A stretch of 64,000 nt of DNA from an uncultured Holophagales bacterium (GTDB lineage: Bacteria > Acidobacteriota > Thermoanaerobaculia > Multivoradales > UBA5704). Below, in pieces: positions 19,876 to 39,721 of the stretch. The notes below the pieces were generated by a model. The model worked only from the letters and a program-made list of their open reading frames with translations. It ran no database searches and was not told the DNA's origin. A program made the translations under genes and the position numbers. Position 1 is the stretch's first letter, and every line of letters starts with the position of its first letter. The stretch is from positions 160,001 through 224,000 of the forward strand of contig CAWJGT010000014.1 of assembly GCA_963842525.1 (NCBI GenBank). Direction: 5' to 3'.

Positions 19876-21240
19876 ATGAAAGCGCGAGTCCTCTACCCTG
19901 CCGCCGCAACCCTCCTGCTCGCCGCCGGGCTGCTCCTGCCCGGGATCTTCGCCCAGGAGCCCCCTGCCGAGCCGCCTCCGAGCCAGCCGCCGCAGCCACC
20001 GAATATCACGCTGGAGCTGCGGCCGGGGCAGCGTCCGCCGATCAAGCTCGGCATCCCGCCGTTCCGCGTCGCCGGCACCCTGCCGGGCGATGCCGCGCGG
20101 GCAGCCCGAGAGCTCGAGGAGGTGGTCCGCCAGGACCTCCGGAATTCGGGCTATTTCGACATCCAGGGGCCCGAGGCGTTCCGCTCGCTGCCTCTGACCG
20201 GCGACATCCAGCGCGACCTGGAGCTCTACCGCTCGGCCGGCAGCCAGATCCTGCTGCTCGGCGACCTGCGGGCCGAAGGGGACAAGGTCGTGTTCGAGGG
20301 CCGGCTGTTCGACCTGTCGGGCGGCCAGGCGATCCTCGCCAAACGCTACCGCGGCGCCTTGCCGGTGGCGCGCCGCATCGGCCACACCTTCGCCGACGAG
20401 GTGATCAACTACCTGACCGGCGCCCAGGGGATCTCCCTGTCGAGCCTCGCCTTCACCAGCGACCGCACCGGGCAGAAGGAGATCTTCGTCATGGACTACG
20501 ACGGGCAGAGCCAGCGGCGGATCACCGGCCACCGCTCGACCTCGATGTCGCCGTCCTGGGCGCCGAACGGCGATGCGCTCGCCTACACCTCGTTCTTCAA
20601 CGGCCCGCCGTCGATCTACCTCGCCGAGCTGGCGAGCGGCCGCAAGCGCCCCCTGGTCACCTCGGGCTCGCTCAACACCACGCCGACCTTCTCGCCCGAC
20701 GGCAGCCGCATCGCCTTCGCCCGCTCGGTTGACGGCAACGTCGAGATCTTCACCACCGACAGGAACGGCGGCGGCCTCCGCCGGCTGACCCACTCGAACG
20801 CCATCGACACCAATCCGGCCTGGAGCCCGAAAGGCGGCGAGATCGCCTTCACCTCCAGCCGGGCCGGCAACCCGCACATCTACCTGATGGATTCCGAGGG
20901 GACGAACCAGCGCCGGCTGACCCACGAGGGCACCTACAACGACGGCGCGGCGTGGAGCCCCTCGGGCGACCTGATCGCCTTCACGAGCCGGCGGGACGGC
21001 CGGTTCCAGATCGCCGTCGCCAACGTGGTCACCCTGGCGAGCCGGGTCCTGACCTCCGGGGCCGGCGAGAACGAGTCGCCGACCTTCTCGCCGGACGGCC
21101 GCAAGATCGCCTTCGTGTCGCGCCGCGGGGGCACGAAACAGATCTACGTCATCGACCTGGACGGCGGCAACGCCCGCCAGCTCACCTCCGACGGGAACAA
21201 CGACATGCCGGACTGGTCGCGGCTGGCAGCGGAACGCTAG
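19876..21240 (+). CDS. tolB: TolB beta-propeller
   Basis: PD40 repeats (PSWAPNG, PTFSPDG, PAWSPKG). Confidence 0.95.
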   Translation: MKARVLYPAAATLLLAAGLLLPGIFAQEPPAEPPPSQPPQPPNITLELRPGQRPPIKLGIPPFRVAGTLPGDAARAARELEEVVRQDLRNSGYFDIQGPEAFRSLPLTGDIQRDLELYRSAGSQILLLGDLRAEGDKVVFEGRLFDLSGGQAILAKRYRGALPVARRIGHTFADEVINYLTGAQGISLSSLAFTSDRTGQKEIFVMDYDGQSQRRITGHRSTSMSPSWAPNGDALAYTSFFNGPPSIYLAELASGRKRPLVTSGSLNTTPTFSPDGSRIAFARSVDGNVEIFTTDRNGGGLRRLTHSNAIDTNPAWSPKGGEIAFTSSRAGNPHIYLMDSEGTNQRRLTHEGTYNDGAAWSPSGDLIAFTSRRDGRFQIAVANVVTLASRVLTSGAGENESPTFSPDGRKIAFVSRRGGTKQIYVIDLDGGNARQLTSDGNNDMPDWSRLAAER

Positions 21241-30393: not shown

Positions 30394-30921
30394 CTAGAAC
30401 CCTTCCAGCAGGTCGCTGACCATGGTCTCGGCGAAACGCTCGGCTGCGCGCTCGATCGCTTCGTCCTCTTGGTCGACGTAGCCCGCGCCGGTGGCGTTGA
30501 TCGGATAGGTCTCGCGGAAGGTGTAGTTGTCGTTGCTCCAGATCACCTGGTCGGTGCCCAGGCGTTTGAAGGCGATCTGGGCGGTGATCGCGATCTCGTA
30601 CTCCGTGGCACGCCCGGTGGGGTCGAAGGTCACCGGCGTGGCGCCGAAGCCGACCACGGCTCCGGAGAGCTCGGCATCCGCGCCTTCGGGGCCGGCGACG
30701 ACCGCGAAACGCTGGCGCGTCACCATCTCGTCCGCGATCGCCCGCGTCAGGGCCTGCTCGACCTGGGCTCGCGGGGTGCGGTTGTCCAGCGGGCGGATGT
30801 AGACCTCCCGGATCTCGGCCGGGATGTTGCTCCCCCGTCCCACCAGGGCGTATCCGCAGCCTCCCAGCGAAAGAGAGAGCGCAAGGAGAAGGGTGAGGGT
30901 CGAAATGCGTCGCCAGATCAT
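30394..30921 (-). CDS. lptE: LPS assembly lipoprotein LptE
   Basis: Lipobox GGCGY; directly downstream of leuS. Confidence 0.88.
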
Positions 30922-34062: not shown

Positions 34063-34539
34063 TCAGGCGCGCAGGCGGGCGAAGAGGTCGGCCATCTCGA
34101 GCGCCGCCAGGGCCGCCTCCCACCCCTTGTTGCCGGCCTTGCCGCCGGCCCGGTCCTGCGCCTGCTCGGAAGTGTCGCAGGTGAGCACGCCGAACCCCAC
34201 CGGCAGACGGTGCCGCTCCGCCACCGCGGCGAGGCCGTGGCTGCAGGCGGAGCAGATGTAGTCGAAATGGGGCGTCTCGCCGCGGATCACCACGCCGACC
34301 GCCACCAGGGCGTCCACCCCGCCGGCAACCGCCAGCTCTGCCGCGGCCTGCGGGATCTCCCAGGCACCGGGTACCCGCACGAGGTGGATGTCCCCCGGCT
34401 CGACGCCGTGCCGCCGCAGGCAGTCCACGGCGCCGCTCACCAGCAGCTCGACGATCCGGGAGTTGAAGCGGGACGCAATGATCCCGAAGCGCCGCCCGGC
34501 GCCGCTCAGCCCCCCTTCAGTGTCCCGGATGTCGTTCAC
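34063..34539 (-). CDS. ribH: 6,7-dimethyl-8-ribityllumazine synthase
   Basis: [29 protein letters not shown]. Confidence 0.96.
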
Positions 34540-35270
34540 GCGAAAGCCCTGAGAGCGGCAGAGTATAGCTCGGCCATGGCGCCGCGCGCCATCTGGCGCA
34601 GGAAGAGGCCATATTCGGGCGCAAAGAAGGCTTTTATCAGGACATCCGCCAGGATGCCGCTCGCGGCCAGGGCCATCAGCTTGGTTTCGTCGCGCTCGAA
34701 CGGCCAGAGCCGGCGTACGAGCAGAGCCCGGGAGAAGACGGTCCCGAGCAGGACGAAGGCGAGGACCCGGATCACCGACCAGGGGACCCAGGCGGCGATC
34801 GAGCCGAGCAGGGCGTGGCCGCTCGCGTCGGCGTAGCTGCCGACGAAATAGCTCATGTAGCCGATCAGGAAAGCGCCCAGCACGAGGCCGAGATAGCCGC
34901 CGCTCGCCCAGGCCAGCAGGATGAAGACGCCGAGGTGGAGCAGGTGCGTCGGCAGGAATTGGCGCCAGTCGTTCTCGGAGCCGGTCCCGGTGGCGATCCA
35001 GTCGAACATCTCCCGCCGGTAGACCTCGCCATGGAGGATCCCGGTGCGGGCGGCATCCGGCAGCCAGAAGACCAGCAGGATCACACCAAGGCTGAGCAGA
35101 AAGGCCCAGAGGAGCCCGAGCTGCCAGGCGGCGAAATAGCTCCGCTCGCGCACCTTCCGCGCAAAGCTCGGGTAGAGGGTGAGCGGCGCCACGAACGGGA
35201 GCACCCAGCCGCCACCCGGCACGGCGGCGAGGAGCGGCAGGAGAGGGGTCAGGAGGATGAGATAGGTCAC
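34536..35270 (-). CDS. Integral membrane protein
   Basis: Multiple TM helices; GTG start overlaps the SDR stop. Confidence 0.75.
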
Positions 35271-35974
35271 AGCGCGCCTCCGGCCGGTCCCAGATGGATC
35301 TCCTCCACCAGGGCCGCGGGGTCGGCGTCGAGGGCGCTCTCGAGCATCCGCGCCACCTCGCGAGGGGGGATCATGCGCGAGCGGTCCCAGCCGGGCAGGC
35401 TGTCCCAGATCGGCGTGTCCGTGGCGCCCGGATAGACGGCGGTCAGCCGCACCCCGGTCCCCTGCAGCTCCTGGCGCAGCGCCGCGACCAGGCCCCGGAG
35501 CCCCCACTTGCTCGCGCAGTAGGCCGACCAGCCGGGGAAGCCCTGGCGAGCTGCCGTCGAGAGGATCGGCACAAGCCAGCCGCTCCCCCGCCGTTTCATG
35601 GCGGGCAGCAGGGCCCGGATGAGCAGGAAGGTGCCGGTGAGGTTCGTGTCGATCGTCTCCCTGAACTGGCCGGGGGTGATGTCCTCCAGCGGCGCGATCC
35701 AGGCCACGCCCGCGGCGGGCACCACGAAGGCGGCGCTCCCCCACCGCTCCTCGACGCGCCGGGTCGTCGCTTCGACGGCCTCGGCGTCGCGTACATCGCA
35801 CGGCAGGACGAGCCCGTCGCCACCGGCTGCCGCGAGGGTCTCCTCAAGGGGAGCCGCCCGCCGGCCGAAGAGGGCCAGGGGGTGCCCCCGGCGCGCCAGC
35901 ATCAGGGCGATCTCGCGTCCGATGCCGGTTCCGCCGCCGCTAACAACGGCCACGCCGTGCGGCTCAATGGTCAT
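35267..35974 (-). CDS. SDR family oxidoreductase
   Basis: SGGGTGIG and YCASK motifs. Confidence 0.93.
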
Positions 35975-36177
35975 CGCGACCCCCGGGAGGACGAGCGGCG
36001 TTCATTCGGTGGCGAGCATATCAGGCCGGCAGGGCTCGCCAAGCGTACACTCAGGGCCGGATTTCCATATCCTTCTTCTCGAATACGTCTCAAAGACCCG
36101 CCTTCCGGCTACCTTGGTTTTAGTGGGGCCGGCACGGCCATGGAGGCCGCGGAGCCGGAAAAACCCGGAGAGGAGAA

Positions 36178-36450
36178 ATGCCAATGCACTGTTCTCGACA
36201 ACGAGCCGTCGCCGTCTTCCTCCTCGTTCTCGCCATGGCCATGCCTGTGGCGGCCCTGCCGGAGGAGGGCCTCGACCCGGACCGGTCCCCCGGACCGTTC
36301 GCGGCGCTCTGGAACCGCCTGTCCTCCCTGCTTGGGCTCTCCGAGAGCGCCGGAGCCAGGAGCCCAGGCGAAGCCGTCGACGGAATCCTGAGCCTCCTTC
36401 CGTGGGATGCCGACTCACGATCCAGCATGGACCCCAACGGCGGCAGCTAG
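36178..36450 (+). CDS. Small secreted pro-peptide-like protein ending SMDPNGGS
   Basis: GAGGAG RBS, Sec signal, low-complexity spacer, followed by a terminator. Confidence 0.75.
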   Translation: MPMHCSRQRAVAVFLLVLAMAMPVAALPEEGLDPDRSPGPFAALWNRLSSLLGLSESAGARSPGEAVDGILSLLPWDADSRSSMDPNGGS

Positions 36451-36488
36451 CCCTCGGCTCCCCCTCCCTCCTCCACGCCTTTTTCGAG

Positions 36489-36515
36489 CGCCGGTCATGT
36501 GCCGGCGTTTTTTTT
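36489..36515 (+). terminator. Rho-independent terminator
   Basis: CGCCGG-TCATGTG-CCGGCG followed by T8. Confidence 0.75.
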
Positions 36516-36571
36516 GTCCCAAAAAAGCTCTCAGCGGCAACTTACTTGTTCAGGAGGGGTGAAAAAGGGTC

Positions 36572-37930
36572 ATGGCCGACGAACGAGATCATGCCTCGCG
36601 AGAGGTGATGCAGCGGTTCTTCCGGTCGGAGCTGTCCCGCCGCGACACGCGGCAGATCGTGCGACACCTTCTGGCCCGGTGCCCGGAGTGCCTGGATACG
36701 GCTCTGGAGATCGGGAGGGCGGAGGGCTTCAGCTCCGAGGAAGGAGACTTCCACAAAAGGCTGGACCCCGACCGCTATCACGAGAGCTTTCTCCGCATGT
36801 TCCGGAGCGCCGACCAGCTCGAGGAGGAGCTGGCGCGTGAGAAGCTGCGCGGTATCGGCCTCTGGGCCTGCCTGGAGAAGCACCCACAGGAACGACGTCT
36901 CCTGATGATCCACAACGACTCCCGGATGCAGACCTGGGGGCTCTATGAACGGCTTCTCGACAAGGCTCGCGAGACGGGTTTCCGCGACCCTGCCGAAGCC
37001 GTCGATATTGCACATCTGGCCCTCGCTGTCGTGGAAGAGCTCGATCCCGCGCAGCATGGCGAGGAGCGGCTCGCCGACTTTCGGGCGGCGGCTCTGGCGG
37101 CTCTCGGAAACTCCCAGAGGCTGGCCTCCGATTTCTCGGGCGCCGAGATGTCGCTCCGCCGAGCCCAGGAGGCCCTCTCCCTGGGAACCGGAGATCCGCT
37201 GGAGAAGGCGACGTTGATCTCATACAAGGCGAGTCTGCTCAAGGATCAGGGTGAATTCGAGCAGGCGGTGCGCCTCATGGATCACGCGATCACCATCTAC
37301 CGGGAGCTGCGGGATCCTCACCTGGAGGGACGTACTCTTCTCCAGCAGGCCGCGACGATCGGCTTCGTGCAACCCGAAAGGGGCGTCGAGCTGGCGGAGA
37401 CAGGGCTCGCGCTGATCGACTCCCTGCGCGAGCCCCGCCTGGAGCTCTGTGGTCGACATGCGCTGGCACATTTCCTCAACGATGCCGGCCAGTCCCGCGA
37501 GGCCCTCATGATGCTCGAGATGTCACGCCCCATCTATGCCCAGTTCCAGGACACGTGGACCAGAACCCGCCTGCACTGGCTAGAAGGCAAGATCGCCCGC
37601 AGCTTGGGTGACCTCGCCGAGGCAGAAGAGACGCTCCAGCAGCTCTGGCTTGAGTTGCAGGAGCCGTCCTATACCCATGAGCTCACCCTGGTCTCACTCG
37701 ATCTAGCCGATGTCTACGTTGCCCGGGGCAAGCATGACGACGCTGCACACCTTATAGCCGAGTTCCTTCCTATGCTGAGGAGTTGGGGGATGCACGCCGA
37801 AGGGCTGGCGATGTGGCTCCTCCTTCAGAAGGCGGTGCAGACCCGCACGGCCCACGCCGCCACGTTCCGCAGCATGACGGAGTACATGTACCGGGCGTGG
37901 TACCGGCCGCTCCGGGACAGGATGGGGTGA
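36572..37930 (+). CDS. TPR protein with an N-terminal H-x4-CxxC zinc-finger-like motif
   Basis: RHLLARCPEC, then TPR-like helices (A.LGNS.RL.SDF..AE, L.DQGEFEQA, L..AGQ.REA). Confidence 0.85.
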   Translation: MADERDHASREVMQRFFRSELSRRDTRQIVRHLLARCPECLDTALEIGRAEGFSSEEGDFHKRLDPDRYHESFLRMFRSADQLEEELAREKLRGIGLWACLEKHPQERRLLMIHNDSRMQTWGLYERLLDKARETGFRDPAEAVDIAHLALAVVEELDPAQHGEERLADFRAAALAALGNSQRLASDFSGAEMSLRRAQEALSLGTGDPLEKATLISYKASLLKDQGEFEQAVRLMDHAITIYRELRDPHLEGRTLLQQAATIGFVQPERGVELAETGLALIDSLREPRLELCGRHALAHFLNDAGQSREALMMLEMSRPIYAQFQDTWTRTRLHWLEGKIARSLGDLAEAEETLQQLWLELQEPSYTHELTLVSLDLADVYVARGKHDDAAHLIAEFLPMLRSWGMHAEGLAMWLLLQKAVQTRTAHAATFRSMTEYMYRAWYRPLRDRMG

Positions 37931-37940
37931 TCGGCAACAG

Positions 37941-38501
37941 CTATCCTGCTCGGCGGAGGATCTCCTGCCAGATGTCCACAAGCCCGAGGCGGTCGGCCCA
38001 ATCCTCGATGTAGGACCGATCCAAGTCCTTGCCGCTGATCTTTAGAACCCCTGCGATGTCCCGTAGATGCTTGTCGGATCCCCCTTCGCGGTAGGCCTCC
38101 ATCTTCTTGAGGATCACATCCTCCGGCGAGGCGAACGAGACCTCGTAGTCCGCGGCAGGCTTCACTCTCCGCATCCGGGCGAAACGACTGCGATCGAAAG
38201 GCGTGAGTGCCGGGACGATCAGATCCACTTTCAGCCCTGAGGCGGGATGAATGACATTGAATTGGCTACGGCGCCGAACCGCTCGCTGGACCGCCTCCTC
38301 GTCCAGATAGAAATCTGGCGACGGAAAGGCTCGGCAGAGCTCCTGGATGCGATTTGGAGGAAGATCGACGACGATGTCGATATCGTTTGTCAGACGTGGC
38401 TCCCCAAAGAAAATCGTCGCGGTCGAGCCGGTCACGAAATAGGCGAGCCCGAGTTGTTCGAGCACCCCGGCCACAAACCGGAGCAGCTCAGACTGCTCCA
38501 T
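37941..38501 (-). CDS. Nucleotidyltransferase-fold protein (putative toxin)
   Basis: TGS.A...GEPRLTNDIDIVV, SPEDVILKK, KHLRDI. Confidence 0.8.
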   Translation of the reverse strand: MEQSELLRFVAGVLEQLGLAYFVTGSTATIFFGEPRLTNDIDIVVDLPPNRIQELCRAFPSPDFYLDEEAVQRAVRRRSQFNVIHPASGLKVDLIVPALTPFDRSRFARMRRVKPAADYEVSFASPEDVILKKMEAYREGGSDKHLRDIAGVLKISGKDLDRSYIEDWADRLGLVDIWQEILRRAG

Positions 38502-38700
38502 GCGAGATCCTCCGGGACACCTCTCTCTGAACCTCCTCCTCGGTCCACTCGGAGTGCTCCGTCCGCAGATGGCTGGCCATCATCCGCCGTACTGACGAGA
38601 ACATGTCGCTGGCGATCTGCAGCCGTTCGGCTCCGGTCTTCTCCCGGAGCACGCGAGCCATGTCGTCATCCATGACTTCGAAGCGAAGCTCTCTGGCCAT
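38488..38700 (-). CDS. Small helical partner (putative antitoxin)
   Basis: 70 aa, overlaps the NTase start; ERLQIA...LR.EH.EW..EEV pattern. Confidence 0.72.
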   Translation of the reverse strand: MARELRFEVMDDDMARVLREKTGAERLQIASDMFSSVRRMMASHLRTEHSEWTEEEVQREVSRRISHGAV

Positions 38701-38719
38701 TCGTGGTCTCCTGAGAAGC

Positions 38720-39721
38720 CTACAGATCCAGTTCGATCCCCCGCCCTTCCGCCCGCGCCTTGCGGAGGACGTGGCGGGCGACGGCGAGATCCTCGACGGC
38801 AATGCCGAGGGACTTGAAGAGGGTGATCTCCTCGGGTGTCCGGCGGCCGGGGATGCGGCCCAGCAGAAGGTCGCCGATCTCGCCTTGGACGTGGTCCTCC
38901 CCTACCGCCCCTTCACGGAGAGGGATGAGGAAGTCTCCAGCCTCGTTGAGGGCCGACTCGCGGCGGTCGACGTACAGGCGTGCGCGGACCACCGCCGCCG
39001 TGTCGAGCTCGCGGGCGGCCGGGGTGCAGGCTCCCACCGCGTTGACGTGCGCGCCGGGCGCGAGCCACTCTCCGGCCAGAACGGGCTCTCGGGCCGAGGT
39101 GACGGTGCAGACCAGGTCGGCCCCGGCGACCGCTTCTCGCGCCGACGCGGCCGGCTCGACGGACAGATCGTAGCGGGCGGCGGCCTCCTCGGCGAAAAGG
39201 CGGGCGTACCCGGCGTCCCGGCTCCACACGCGGACGCGGCGCAGGGAGCGCACCTCCCGCAAGGCCGCGAGATGGCTGCGGGCCTGGACGCCCGTGCCGA
39301 GGAGAGCCAGGTCGCCGGCGTCCTCCCGCGCCAGCAGGCGCGTGGCGAGAGCGCTCGCGGCGGCAGTGCGGATCGCCGTCACGGAGGCGGCGTCCAGCAG
39401 GGCGATCGGACGTCCCAGATCCGCCTCGAAGAGCAGCACCACCCCGAGGTGGGACTCCACGCCCCGGGCGTGATTGCCCGGGAAGACGGTGATCACCTTG
39501 AGCCCGAGGACTTCCTCCTTCCCCTCCCCGCCGCCGGCCGTGAGGGCGCCCGGCATCACGCCCAGGAGGCCGCGGCGGTCGGGGAGCCAGCAGGCCGAGC
39601 GCAGCGGTTGCACGGCTTCGCCGCGGGCGAGCGCCGCAAGGGCCTCGGCGACGACATCGATGCACTCTCCATAGGGGAGGAGCGCCTCGACCTCGGTGCG
39701 ATTCAGGAAGAGGAGCGACAT
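38720..39721 (-). CDS. Ornithine cyclodeaminase/mu-crystallin family
   Basis: TAIRTAAASALAT, GTGVQA, FKSLGIAVED. Confidence 0.94.
   Translation of the reverse strand: MSLLFLNRTEVEALLPYGECIDVVAEALAALARGEAVQPLRSACWLPDRRGLLGVMPGALTAGGGEGKEEVLGLKVITVFPGNHARGVESHLGVVLLFEADLGRPIALLDAASVTAIRTAAASALATRLLAREDAGDLALLGTGVQARSHLAALREVRSLRRVRVWSRDAGYARLFAEEAAARYDLSVEPAASAREAVAGADLVCTVTSAREPVLAGEWLAPGAHVNAVGACTPAARELDTAAVVRARLYVDRRESALNEAGDFLIPLREGAVGEDHVQGEIGDLLLGRIPGRRTPEEITLFKSLGIAVEDLAVARHVLRKARAEGRGIELDL

Follow-up and report, generated by a model that had tools for sequence, protein, structure and literature searches.

A putative secreted pro-peptide and a ZAS-TPR protein form a candidate peptide-signalling pair that is heavily expanded in Thermoanaerobaculia

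Introduction

The DNA analyzed here (the window) is a stretch of 64,000 nucleotides from contig CAWJGT010000014.1 of an uncultured Holophagales bacterium belonging to the class Thermoanaerobaculia (Acidobacteriota). The leucyl-tRNA synthetase (LeuRS) groups the organism with metagenome-assembled genomes of uncultured Thermoanaerobaculia, its best match showing 84% identity. On its forward strand it carries a small open reading frame (ORF) for a putative secreted pro-peptide, followed by a gene for a soluble protein in which an N-terminal zinc-binding anti-sigma (ZAS) domain precedes a superhelix of tetratricopeptide repeats (TPR). The original prediction, made from the DNA letters, had proposed that the two act together as a peptide signal and its receptor, in analogy to the RRNPP systems. 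We describe the two genes, the paired families to which they belong in the same genome and in related organisms, and the arguments for and against peptide recognition by the TPR domain.

Layout of the locus

The pro-peptide gene and the TPR gene lie on the same strand with a gap of 121 nt (Table 1). The features on which the original prediction had been built were recovered: the small gene has a ribosome binding site, a Sec-like signal (judged by eye), a spacer and its own terminator-like hairpin, and the adjacent protein appears cytoplasmic, with no hydrophobic segment and with an H32-x4-C37-x2-C40 motif near its N-terminus. The lptE and tol genes that had been cited for a diderm host are also present in the window, with LptE at ca. 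30409-30810 and TolB_N at ca. 20008-20331.

Table 1. Positions of the features of the peptide/TPR locus in the window.
Feature	Position	Strand	Remarks
Shine-Dalgarno-like sequence GGAGAGGAG	36167..36175	+	Read from the sequence; 8 nt 5' of the second ATG (36184)
Pro-peptide gene	36178..36450	+	90 residues with the first ATG as start, 88 with 36184
Sec-type signal peptide	36178..36255	+	Residues 1-26, predicted cleavage after VAA; judged by eye
Amphipathic Trp-containing helix FAALWNRLSSLLG	36295..36348	+	Residues 40-57; common to the whole peptide family
Conserved C-terminal unit DSRSSMDPNG, candidate mature signal	36412..36441	+	Residues 79-88
Terminator-like hairpin with T run	36486..36517	+	10 pairs, 6 of them G-C; intergenic
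ZAS-TPR protein gene, 452 aa, soluble	36572..37930	+	ORF; AF2 model with pLDDT 87.1, all-helical
Zinc-binding anti-sigma (ZAS) domain	36572..36721	+	Residues 1-50; ligands H7, H32, C37, C40
TPR superhelix, candidate peptide-binding sensor	36815..37906	+	Residues ~82-445

The second ATG is probably the true start of the pro-peptide gene, because the orthologues and an 88-residue database copy (P0179) begin there and the Shine-Dalgarno-like sequence GGAGAGGAG is well spaced from it. The GC content of the gene by codon position is 0.71/0.56/0.80. The encoded polypeptide begins with a basic n-region (MPMHCSRQR), which is followed by a hydrophobic core of 17 residues (AVAVFLLVLAMAMPVAA) and by a putative AxA cleavage site between VAA and LP. 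The same layout of n-region, h-region and AxA site was recognized by eye in 13 aligned family peptides. At its other end the chain closes with DSRSSMDPNGGS. The predicted structure has a low confidence (mean predicted local distance difference test score, pLDDT, of 58.5) and consists of helices at residues 5-21 and 40-57 with coil elsewhere; an LW..L column block is kept in the alignment of the family peptides (A3). The pro-peptide matched no family in Pfam and NCBIfam, and none of the precursor families in these databases matched any of the 11 peptides tested.

A terminator-like site was found 3' of 7 of 33 peptide genes. The corresponding figures are 18 of 2000 for random windows and 2 of 96 for the ends of TPR ORFs. 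The intergenic RNA as a whole was predicted to fold no more stably than shuffled sequences (z = -0.77), so that only the local hairpin counts.

The ZAS-TPR protein

Judged by motif and profile, the N-terminus of the 452-residue protein is a true ZAS domain, and the earlier description of it as anti-sigma-like can be made more specific. This identity follows from three observations. All 12 diverse family members that were aligned have the ligands H7, H32, C37 and C40, Pfam zf-HC2 matches two of these 12 (best E-value 3e-07), and a profile of the first ~100 residues matched ChrR (E-value 0.003), 3hug_B and DdvA when compared to the Protein Data Bank. The zinc ligand positions of the family N-terminus align with those of ChrR. 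The zinc motif was recognized in 66 of the 102 rows of the family, 50 of which have the x4 spacing that is also found in the window's protein while 16 have x3.

In the predicted structure the small N-terminal helical domain is connected by a disordered linker (residues 58-72) to a series of paired helices (residues 82-442). Pfam TPR_12 scored above its cut-off in this protein (40.3 versus 30.1 bits); apart from generic TPR models, the comparison of the window's protein with Pfam and NCBIfam gave only sub-threshold matches to TPR_MalT and NsdA_fam. A Foldseek search with the TPR model returned eukaryotic LGN TPRs as the best matches, such as 3sf4_C (E-value 4.4e-07) and 4wnd_A (TMq 0.51). RapF and Rap in complex with the competence and sporulation factor (4gyo, TMq 0.54) were also retrieved, as were phage Rap with its pheromone, NprR, domain III of MalT, and DdvA. 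The modeled fold thus fits a peptide receptor and does not single one out.

Peptide and TPR genes are paired throughout the genome

The 9.95 Mb genome contains 117 matches to the window's TPR protein. At the ORF level, 96 of the 21,579 ORFs of at least 150 codons match at E ≤ 1e-5. Peptide genes were collected with a crude rule, which accepts a reading frame that ends at most 12 residues from DP[ND]G and has a hydrophobic N-terminus. This gave 36 small ORFs, of which 33 occur within 1 kb of a TPR-family ORF, and in 26 of these 33 near pairs the peptide gene is located upstream on the same strand. When a profile was made from the 36 peptides, it matched 71 of 74,597 small ORFs at E ≤ 1e-3 (68 unique sequences), and 62 of the 71 are within 1 kb of a TPR-family ORF. 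Conversely, 75 of the 96 TPR ORFs have a profile-positive peptide within that distance. The regions within 1 kb of TPR-family ORFs cover only 2.7% of the genome, and the pairing of the two families is far beyond chance. The counts of 96 TPR ORFs and 71 peptides were obtained by longest-ORF calling. Fragments, frameshifted copies and no fewer than three exact duplicates from separate contigs are among them.

Contigs C9 and C18 share a peptide gene that is identical in both, together with its TPR neighbor (C9:4004-4408 and C18:2594-2998), and further identical pairs are C10:32938-33213 with C8:904-1179 and C18:42535-42825 with C19:528567-528857. Such repeats may be due to recent duplication or to redundancy of the assembly, for which a contamination of 3.36% is given. 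A tandem array with at least six peptide/TPR pairs is present at C9:424154-438475. Its peptides are basic, carry a single unit of the form G-x-C-I-D-P-x-G-x-x-x-P-C, and have a lower third-position GC content than the rest of the family.

Architecture of the peptide family

All peptides are built alike: the signal peptide is followed by a helix of the type LW..L..(L/W), which a variable spacer separates from one to four C-terminal units. A paralogue of the window's peptide at C9:601195-601476, for example, has a tail of the DGRSTIDPNG type. Two peptides have no unit, 26 have one, 22 have two, 17 have three and one has four. The consensus of 125 units is [GS]-[DE]-x-G-[CSG]-x-[ILM]-D-P-[NDH..]-G. 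In 21 of the 66 unit-bearing peptides the protein ends exactly at the Gly of a unit, and in one subclass Cys residues surround each unit (C-x-[ILM]-D-P-x-G-x-C). The DPNG tail that had attracted attention to the window's peptide is conserved, but the motif as a whole is a repeated unit of 11 residues ending in D-P-x-G, in one to four copies.

Upstream of the peptide genes, the hexamer CACT[CT]T occurs between positions -110 and -40 in 13 of 67 cases as compared to 28 of 3000 background genes. It is mostly located 68-84 nt before the start codon, for example at C9:580460, C9:1446856 and C33:23116, and it may be a shared promoter element. Two-box promoter patterns, which were written after seeing the data, matched only 2 of 67 peptide genes. 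Since CACT[CT]T is absent from the region upstream of the window's peptide gene, no promoter is claimed.

Conservation in related genomes

The TPR family was detected at E ≤ 1e-10 in 28 of 31 related genomes, the own genome included. The number of members per genome reaches at least 54 in the window's genus, and no member was detected in three genomes that belong to the same order. Among 151 genomes sampled evenly across the phylum, at least 6 gave a match at E ≤ 1e-30, all from the same class; because 11 candidates per genome were scored in this sample, the number is a lower bound and does not imply absence elsewhere. A library of representative proteins contains 3,775 TPR-family clusters at E ≤ 1e-30, and matches in the ESM Atlas were restricted to Acidobacteriota clusters annotated as "hypothetical" or "TPR". 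A tblastn search of plasmids with the TPR protein gave no match, and a scan for related loci with the single TPR protein gave no confirmed relative. The public sequencing runs listed as holders included no RNA run and one soil DNA run with a share of 0.21.

The peptide accompanies the TPR gene in the relatives as well. A peptide match was found at 24 of 28 TPR loci from nine genomes representing six families. At 11 relative loci inspected earlier, the peptide was detected by profile at eight and by eye at two more, and the eleventh is located at a contig end. A profile search of public proteins yielded 112 small proteins, nearly all annotated as "hypothetical", and the named ones came from metagenome-assembled genomes of Thermoanaerobaculia.

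Ten orthologues of the window's peptide were obtained, at 58-72% identity. Their mean identity to the window's peptide is 0.89 in the signal peptide, 0.81 in the next segment, 0.63 in the helix (residues 40-54), 0.30 in the spacer and 0.81 in the tail. Residues D79, S80, R81, M84, D85, P86 and G88 are invariant in the 11 sequences formed by the window's peptide and its orthologues. According to the original prediction, the proposal of a signalling pair would lose its ground if the DPNG tail were not conserved or if small ORFs with such tails did not co-occur with the TPR family. The tail is kept in 10 of 10 orthologues, and DPxG-ending signal-peptide ORFs do accompany the TPR family both within this genome and in the relatives, so neither of these two situations applies.

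The conservation also bears on the possibility that the 90-residue frame is spurious and just happens to precede an ordinary TPR gene in GC-rich DNA. Long spurious ORFs are numerous in high-GC genomes and were also seen here. However, the ten orthologues preserve the reading frame with gaps that are in-frame only, the 112 database proteins match the profile, 71 paralogues have a like architecture, and a ribosome binding site and a terminator-like site are present. These observations contradict a chance ORF, the probability of which we consider practically negligible.

With 65% identity, the gene at locus L009 (G004:C217:53748-58094) is the orthologue most similar to the TPR gene of the window; it contains one in-frame TGA. 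The peptide encoded upstream of it has two units, RSRSSADPDG and DSRSGADPDG, whereas the window's peptide has one intact and one degenerate copy.

Neighboring genes and output domains

All ORFs within 6 kb of 62 merged loci were clustered all-against-all. No recurrent enzyme, protease or transporter was found among them. The recurrent neighbors were members of the TPR family itself (46), small XRE-type helix-turn-helix (HTH) proteins (12) and a few small unannotated proteins. At ca. 11 loci the small XRE-type HTH proteins (95-197 aa) are encoded directly after the ZAS-TPR gene in convergent orientation, for example at C24:109131-109583, C4:251090-251581 and C9:210412-210831, and these could be split-off DNA-binding partners. 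Two more clusters of small unannotated proteins recur at 5-6 loci.

The composition of the neighborhoods is relevant to the alternative, raised with the original prediction, that the peptide is the precursor of a ribosomally synthesized and post-translationally modified peptide (RiPP). The repeated units would then be core peptides that are modified by enzymes, and the TPR protein would be a recognition or regulatory partner. The presence of one to four core-like units per precursor is reminiscent of multi-core RiPP precursors, and the conserved helix preceding the units could act as a leader. We nevertheless regard this explanation as very improbable, and the earlier suggestion is not retained: no radical-SAM enzyme, cyclodehydratase, lanthipeptide synthetase, peptidase-transporter or other enzyme family that could modify the precursor recurs around the 62 merged loci, and the 11 tested peptides belong to no Pfam or NCBIfam precursor family. 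Furthermore, a Sec signal peptide is unusual among bacterial RiPP precursors.

A sigma factor gene is located within 2 kb of only 3 of the 96 TPR ORFs of the genome. A search of the genome for Sigma70_r2 gave 47 proteins with this domain, and one match (C14:145128) is on the window's contig, at ca. 51 kb from the TPR gene. In other members of the family, including those from genomes with 1-3 copies, a gene for an extracytoplasmic function (ECF) sigma factor with Sigma70_r2 and r4 domains runs up to or into the start of the ZAS-TPR gene. At loci L123, L102, L147 and L144, where the stop codon of the sigma gene overlaps the TPR start, a peptide gene of the family is located before or after these two genes. 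The own genome (G000) has a related arrangement at C34:42606-46922 (L110/L005), where the gene order is sigma-TPR-peptide-sigma-TPR. Operons with peptide, ECF sigma and ZAS-TPR genes also occur at L120 and L131, and several of the peptides from sigma operons end with ...RIDGNG or ...RIDDNG, not with DPxG.

Of the 102 TPR proteins that were included in a phylogenetic tree, 66 are accompanied by a peptide gene only, 10 by sigma and peptide genes, 7 by a sigma gene only and 19 by neither, with at least 2 of these 19 representing detection misses. Linkage to a sigma gene (17 of 102) is absent from the window's clade, which comprises 16 rows from two families. The tree was calculated with FastTree and rooted at the midpoint, and we do not claim which architecture is ancestral. 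As far as sequences and gene order tell, the receptor family goes back to ECF sigma/anti-sigma operons or is intermixed with them.

A different output domain is found in the clade with Cys-bracketed peptides, where Pfam HTH_3, scoring above cut-off, replaces the ZAS domain. HTH_3 occurs inside 20 of the 96 TPR ORFs of the genome, and 17 of these 20 have a peptide within 1 kb; a separate HTH_3 gene is present within 1.5 kb of 26 further TPR ORFs. HTH-TPR members are encoded for example at C14:51570-57768 and C7:90941-94388, and at 15 other places, mostly in convergent or divergent orientation with Cys-bracketed peptides. One such pair consists of the HTH-TPR gene at C7:90941-92413 and the peptide gene at C7:92476-92769. 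Different output domains thus combine with the same pairing of peptide and TPR domain, as is expected if the peptide or its product is sensed by the TPR domain.

Comparison with known systems

The RRNPP_detector study applied a signature to Firmicutes and viruses that requires a propeptide of 10-100 residues, its secretion by the Sec pathway as predicted by SignalP, a receptor of ca. 250-500 residues with TPRs, and genes that are direct neighbors (PMC10075063). The window's pair appears to agree with all five points of this published signature, with a putative Sec signal that was judged by eye: the propeptide has 90 residues (88 from the second ATG), the receptor has 452 residues with TPR_12 above its cut-off, and the genes are adjacent on the same strand. 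Like the pairs Rap-Phr, NprR-NprX, PlcR-PapR, Rgg-SHP and AimR-AimP of Bacillota, phages and plasmids, it combines a small propeptide, here with a putative Sec-type signal, with an adjoining cytoplasmic TPR protein. Further similarities are the conserved C-terminal end as the candidate signal, the expansion of the pairs into paralogues, and the resemblance of the TPR model to the structures of Rap and NprR, which is no better than that to LGN. Sister family members with XRE-HTH and TPR domains even have the classic receptor architecture of PlcR, NprR and AimR.

There are also clear differences. The organism is an acidobacterium with two membranes, the N-terminus of the window's receptor is a ZAS domain where RRNPP receptors have an HTH or the Rap N-terminal domain, and the peptide gene of the window's pair is located upstream of the receptor gene. 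The peptides have 1-4 repeats of the 11-residue unit ending in DPxG, and there are ca. 70 pairs in one genome. We describe the pair as one that works like an RRNPP system and do not file it as a member of the RRNPP family, because no sequence or profile link to Rap, Rgg, NprR, PlcR or PrgX was detectable and the window's receptor, with its ZAS N-terminus, lacks the RRNPP N-terminal domains.

As to the ZAS anti-sigma factors ChrR, RslA, RsrA and DdvA, the window's protein has the N-terminal H...H-x3/4-C-x2-C site in common with this class, aligned to the ligands of ChrR, and the genes of some family members directly follow an ECF sigma gene, the stop codon of which overlaps their start codon. 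Unlike these factors it is soluble, and its sensor is a TPR region of 350 residues, not a cupin or a transmembrane/periplasmic domain. Like that of the window, most copies are orphans that are not located beside their own ECF sigma gene, and the constant neighbor is a gene for a small secreted peptide. A re-classification of ECF sigma factors mentions 10 ECF groups with soluble anti-sigma factors, and ECF42 sigma factors that carry TPR extensions; the ZAS-TPR architecture with a peptide is not mentioned in the available part of that source (PMC7826278).

The TPR model further resembles the TPR domains of LGN/Pins and the Hop-type carboxylate clamps, in which a superhelical TPR wraps an extended peptide in its inner groove, but this is a resemblance of fold alone, at 16-19% identity and with no functional link. 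Recognition of a free acidic C-terminus is a known binding mode of TPR domains. Full-text searches of the literature found no description of the family; the supplementary tables of PMC10075063 could list candidates.

Co-variation and predicted binding of peptide and TPR protein

Two computational checks were used to examine whether peptides and TPR proteins match. In 12 of 29 pairs, the nearest paralogue of the TPR protein is accompanied by the nearest paralogue of the peptide. The distances within the two families correlate with a Spearman coefficient of 0.20, a value that was reached by 50 of 2000 permutations. The sequences thus indicate that peptide/TPR modules duplicate as units.

Prediction of a complex between the TPR protein and residues 27-90 of the peptide gave a score of 0.51 (individual runs 0.60, 0.48 and 0.51), whereas the best of three controls scored 0.00. 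The runs agreed in at least 77% of the contacts, and the pLDDT of the partner was at least 51. The mark used for this test was passed by 58 of 80 solved complexes and by 2 of 110 mismatched pairs. Only 7 of the 80 solved complexes, but both of the passing mismatches, passed with a score of at most 0.60. The complex prediction thus lends weak support to the binding that had been postulated with the original prediction.

Proposed mechanism and alternative explanations

We propose that the pair is a unit of a lineage-specific and heavily expanded module of Thermoanaerobaculia, in which the peptide, once processed, is bound by the TPR domain as its ligand and in this way controls the output, be it anti-sigma or DNA-binding. 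We put the probability of this at about 50%. The pro-peptide would be exported and cut by signal peptidase, after which the C-terminal DPxG unit or units would be released. The product would then re-enter the cytoplasm, for which three genes for binding proteins of the Opp/Dpp type (SBP_bac_5) are encoded in the genome. There it would bind to the concave face of its cognate TPR domain, and binding would switch the N-terminal output domain. For the window's copy, the switch would be the release or capture of a sigma factor that is not encoded nearby. The idea of an RRNPP-like peptide/receptor system in a diderm, as originally put forward, thus stands with respect to the conserved neighboring pair and its apparent agreement with the published signature, while for the binding itself the model offers weak support.

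A wider reading, which we hold tentatively and at somewhat below even odds, is that Thermoanaerobaculia possess dozens of private DPxG-peptide channels per genome (~70 here), each with a TPR sensor and a ZAS or XRE HTH output. The signal of each channel would resemble a decapeptide ending in DPxG, set free from a Sec-exported pro-peptide and read by the cognate sensor in the cytoplasm. It forms a joint proposal, with the same reserve, with the notion that this channel system has arisen from an autoregulated operon of peptide, ECF sigma and anti-sigma genes.

Several observations weigh against recognition of a returned peptide. The window's own protein has no zf-HC2 match at E ≤ 1, and its spacing is H-x4-C and not the classic H-x3-C. 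The fold does not discriminate, since the best structural matches are to LGN and not to RRNPP receptors. The co-variation is modest and would also arise from co-duplication alone, and the score of the predicted complex lies in a band where passes are more often wrong than right unless there is a strong prior. There is no sigma gene near the window's copy. The signal peptide is the most conserved part of the orthologues, which is unexplained if the tail alone is the ligand, and in the most distant members of the class the neighboring small secreted proteins lack DPxG. Finally, with a cytoplasmic receptor in a diderm a mature peptide of ca. 10 residues must cross the outer membrane twice, and the 62 merged loci have no recurrent gene for a transporter or a protease.

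An alternative explanation is that the ZAS-TPR or HTH-TPR protein, with its sigma factor where there is one, only controls transcription of the neighboring gene, and that the TPR domain senses something else. The secreted protein would then act outside the cytoplasm, for example as an antimicrobial or competition peptide, as an acidic hairpin that binds Ca2+ or another metal, or as a component of the envelope or matrix. Output genes of their own are common in ECF sigma operons, and in several genomes the peptide is indeed located inside a sigma/anti-sigma operon. The units are acidic and turn-forming (D-x-G-x-x-I-D-P-N-G), and in one subclass the Cys pairs around them might give rise to periplasmic disulfide loops. 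The loci have no linked importer or protease, and distant members retain the signal and helix without the DPxG unit. It is hard to explain, however, why ca. 70 pairs of regulator and cargo would be kept through duplication without pair-specific recognition, or why the peptide follows the TPR domain across the swap from ZAS to HTH. The conserved tail next to a variable spacer, together with the weak support from complex prediction (0.51 versus 0.00), also suggests that the peptide is recognized. We therefore consider such a division of roles unlikely, with a real chance of being correct.

The high conservation of the N-terminal part suggests yet another possibility, which is that the TPR domain binds the unexported pre-protein by its signal and helix, or else fragments that are set free into the cytoplasm when the signal peptide is cleaved, so that output is coupled to export and no re-import is needed. 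Enterococcal pheromones that are cut from lipoprotein signal peptides and the TPR chaperone-regulators of type III secretion offer parallels. Orthologue conservation is indeed highest in the signal peptide (0.89), with the next segment at 0.81, and the most distant relatives retain the signal and the helix. The cytoplasmic location of the receptor and the lack of an importer linked to the loci also fit. The complex prediction is uninformative on this point because it covered residues 27-90 and thus omitted the signal peptide. Sensing of the pre-protein is improbable in our view, since the signal peptides of the paralogues look alike and would provide little specificity for ca. 70 pairs, and since the strongly conserved and repeated DPxG units would be left without a role.

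Significance of the peptide/TPR pairs

Peptide signalling with cytoplasmic TPR receptors is regarded as a hallmark of Bacillota and their mobile elements. If the proposed recognition is true, RRNPP-like peptide quorum sensing would for the first time be found in a diderm phylum, and a secreted peptide would for the first time be seen to gate a soluble anti-sigma factor. Its occurrence in an abundant, uncultured class of soil acidobacteria would extend peptide communication to diderms, and sigma/anti-sigma control would gain a new input mechanism. The family also presents a natural experiment in modularity, with one type of TPR sensor and its peptide partner connected to either an anti-sigma or a DNA-binding output. 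In the sources that we have seen, all members of this large family (3,775 clusters) are annotated as "hypothetical" or by a generic "TPR". The peptides are short and appear unmodified, which makes synthesis and direct testing feasible. Even if binding fails, the ca. 70 co-inherited pairs of secreted peptide and regulator per genome constitute an unexplained feature that defines the lineage. The pairs represent a new form of peptide/TPR-receptor signalling or, failing that, still a gene pair that is new and defines the lineage.

Flanking genes in the window

Upstream of the pair, the minus strand contains a 421-codon ORF at 34536-35801. The C-terminal half of its translation is hydrophobic, and none of the Pfam families matched it at E ≤ 1. 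Since the ORF overlaps in another frame with an ORF for a short-chain dehydrogenase (35267-35974), it probably does not code for protein in its upstream part. Downstream, a probable toxin-antitoxin pair is encoded on the minus strand at 37941-38802, convergent with the TPR gene. The toxin would be an AbiEii-like nucleotidyltransferase of 186 residues (PF08843, 25.3 bits with a cut-off of 22.5), and the antitoxin of 104 residues, the gene of which overlaps the start of the toxin gene, has a domain related to Rv0078B (PF18993, E-value 5.3e-10).

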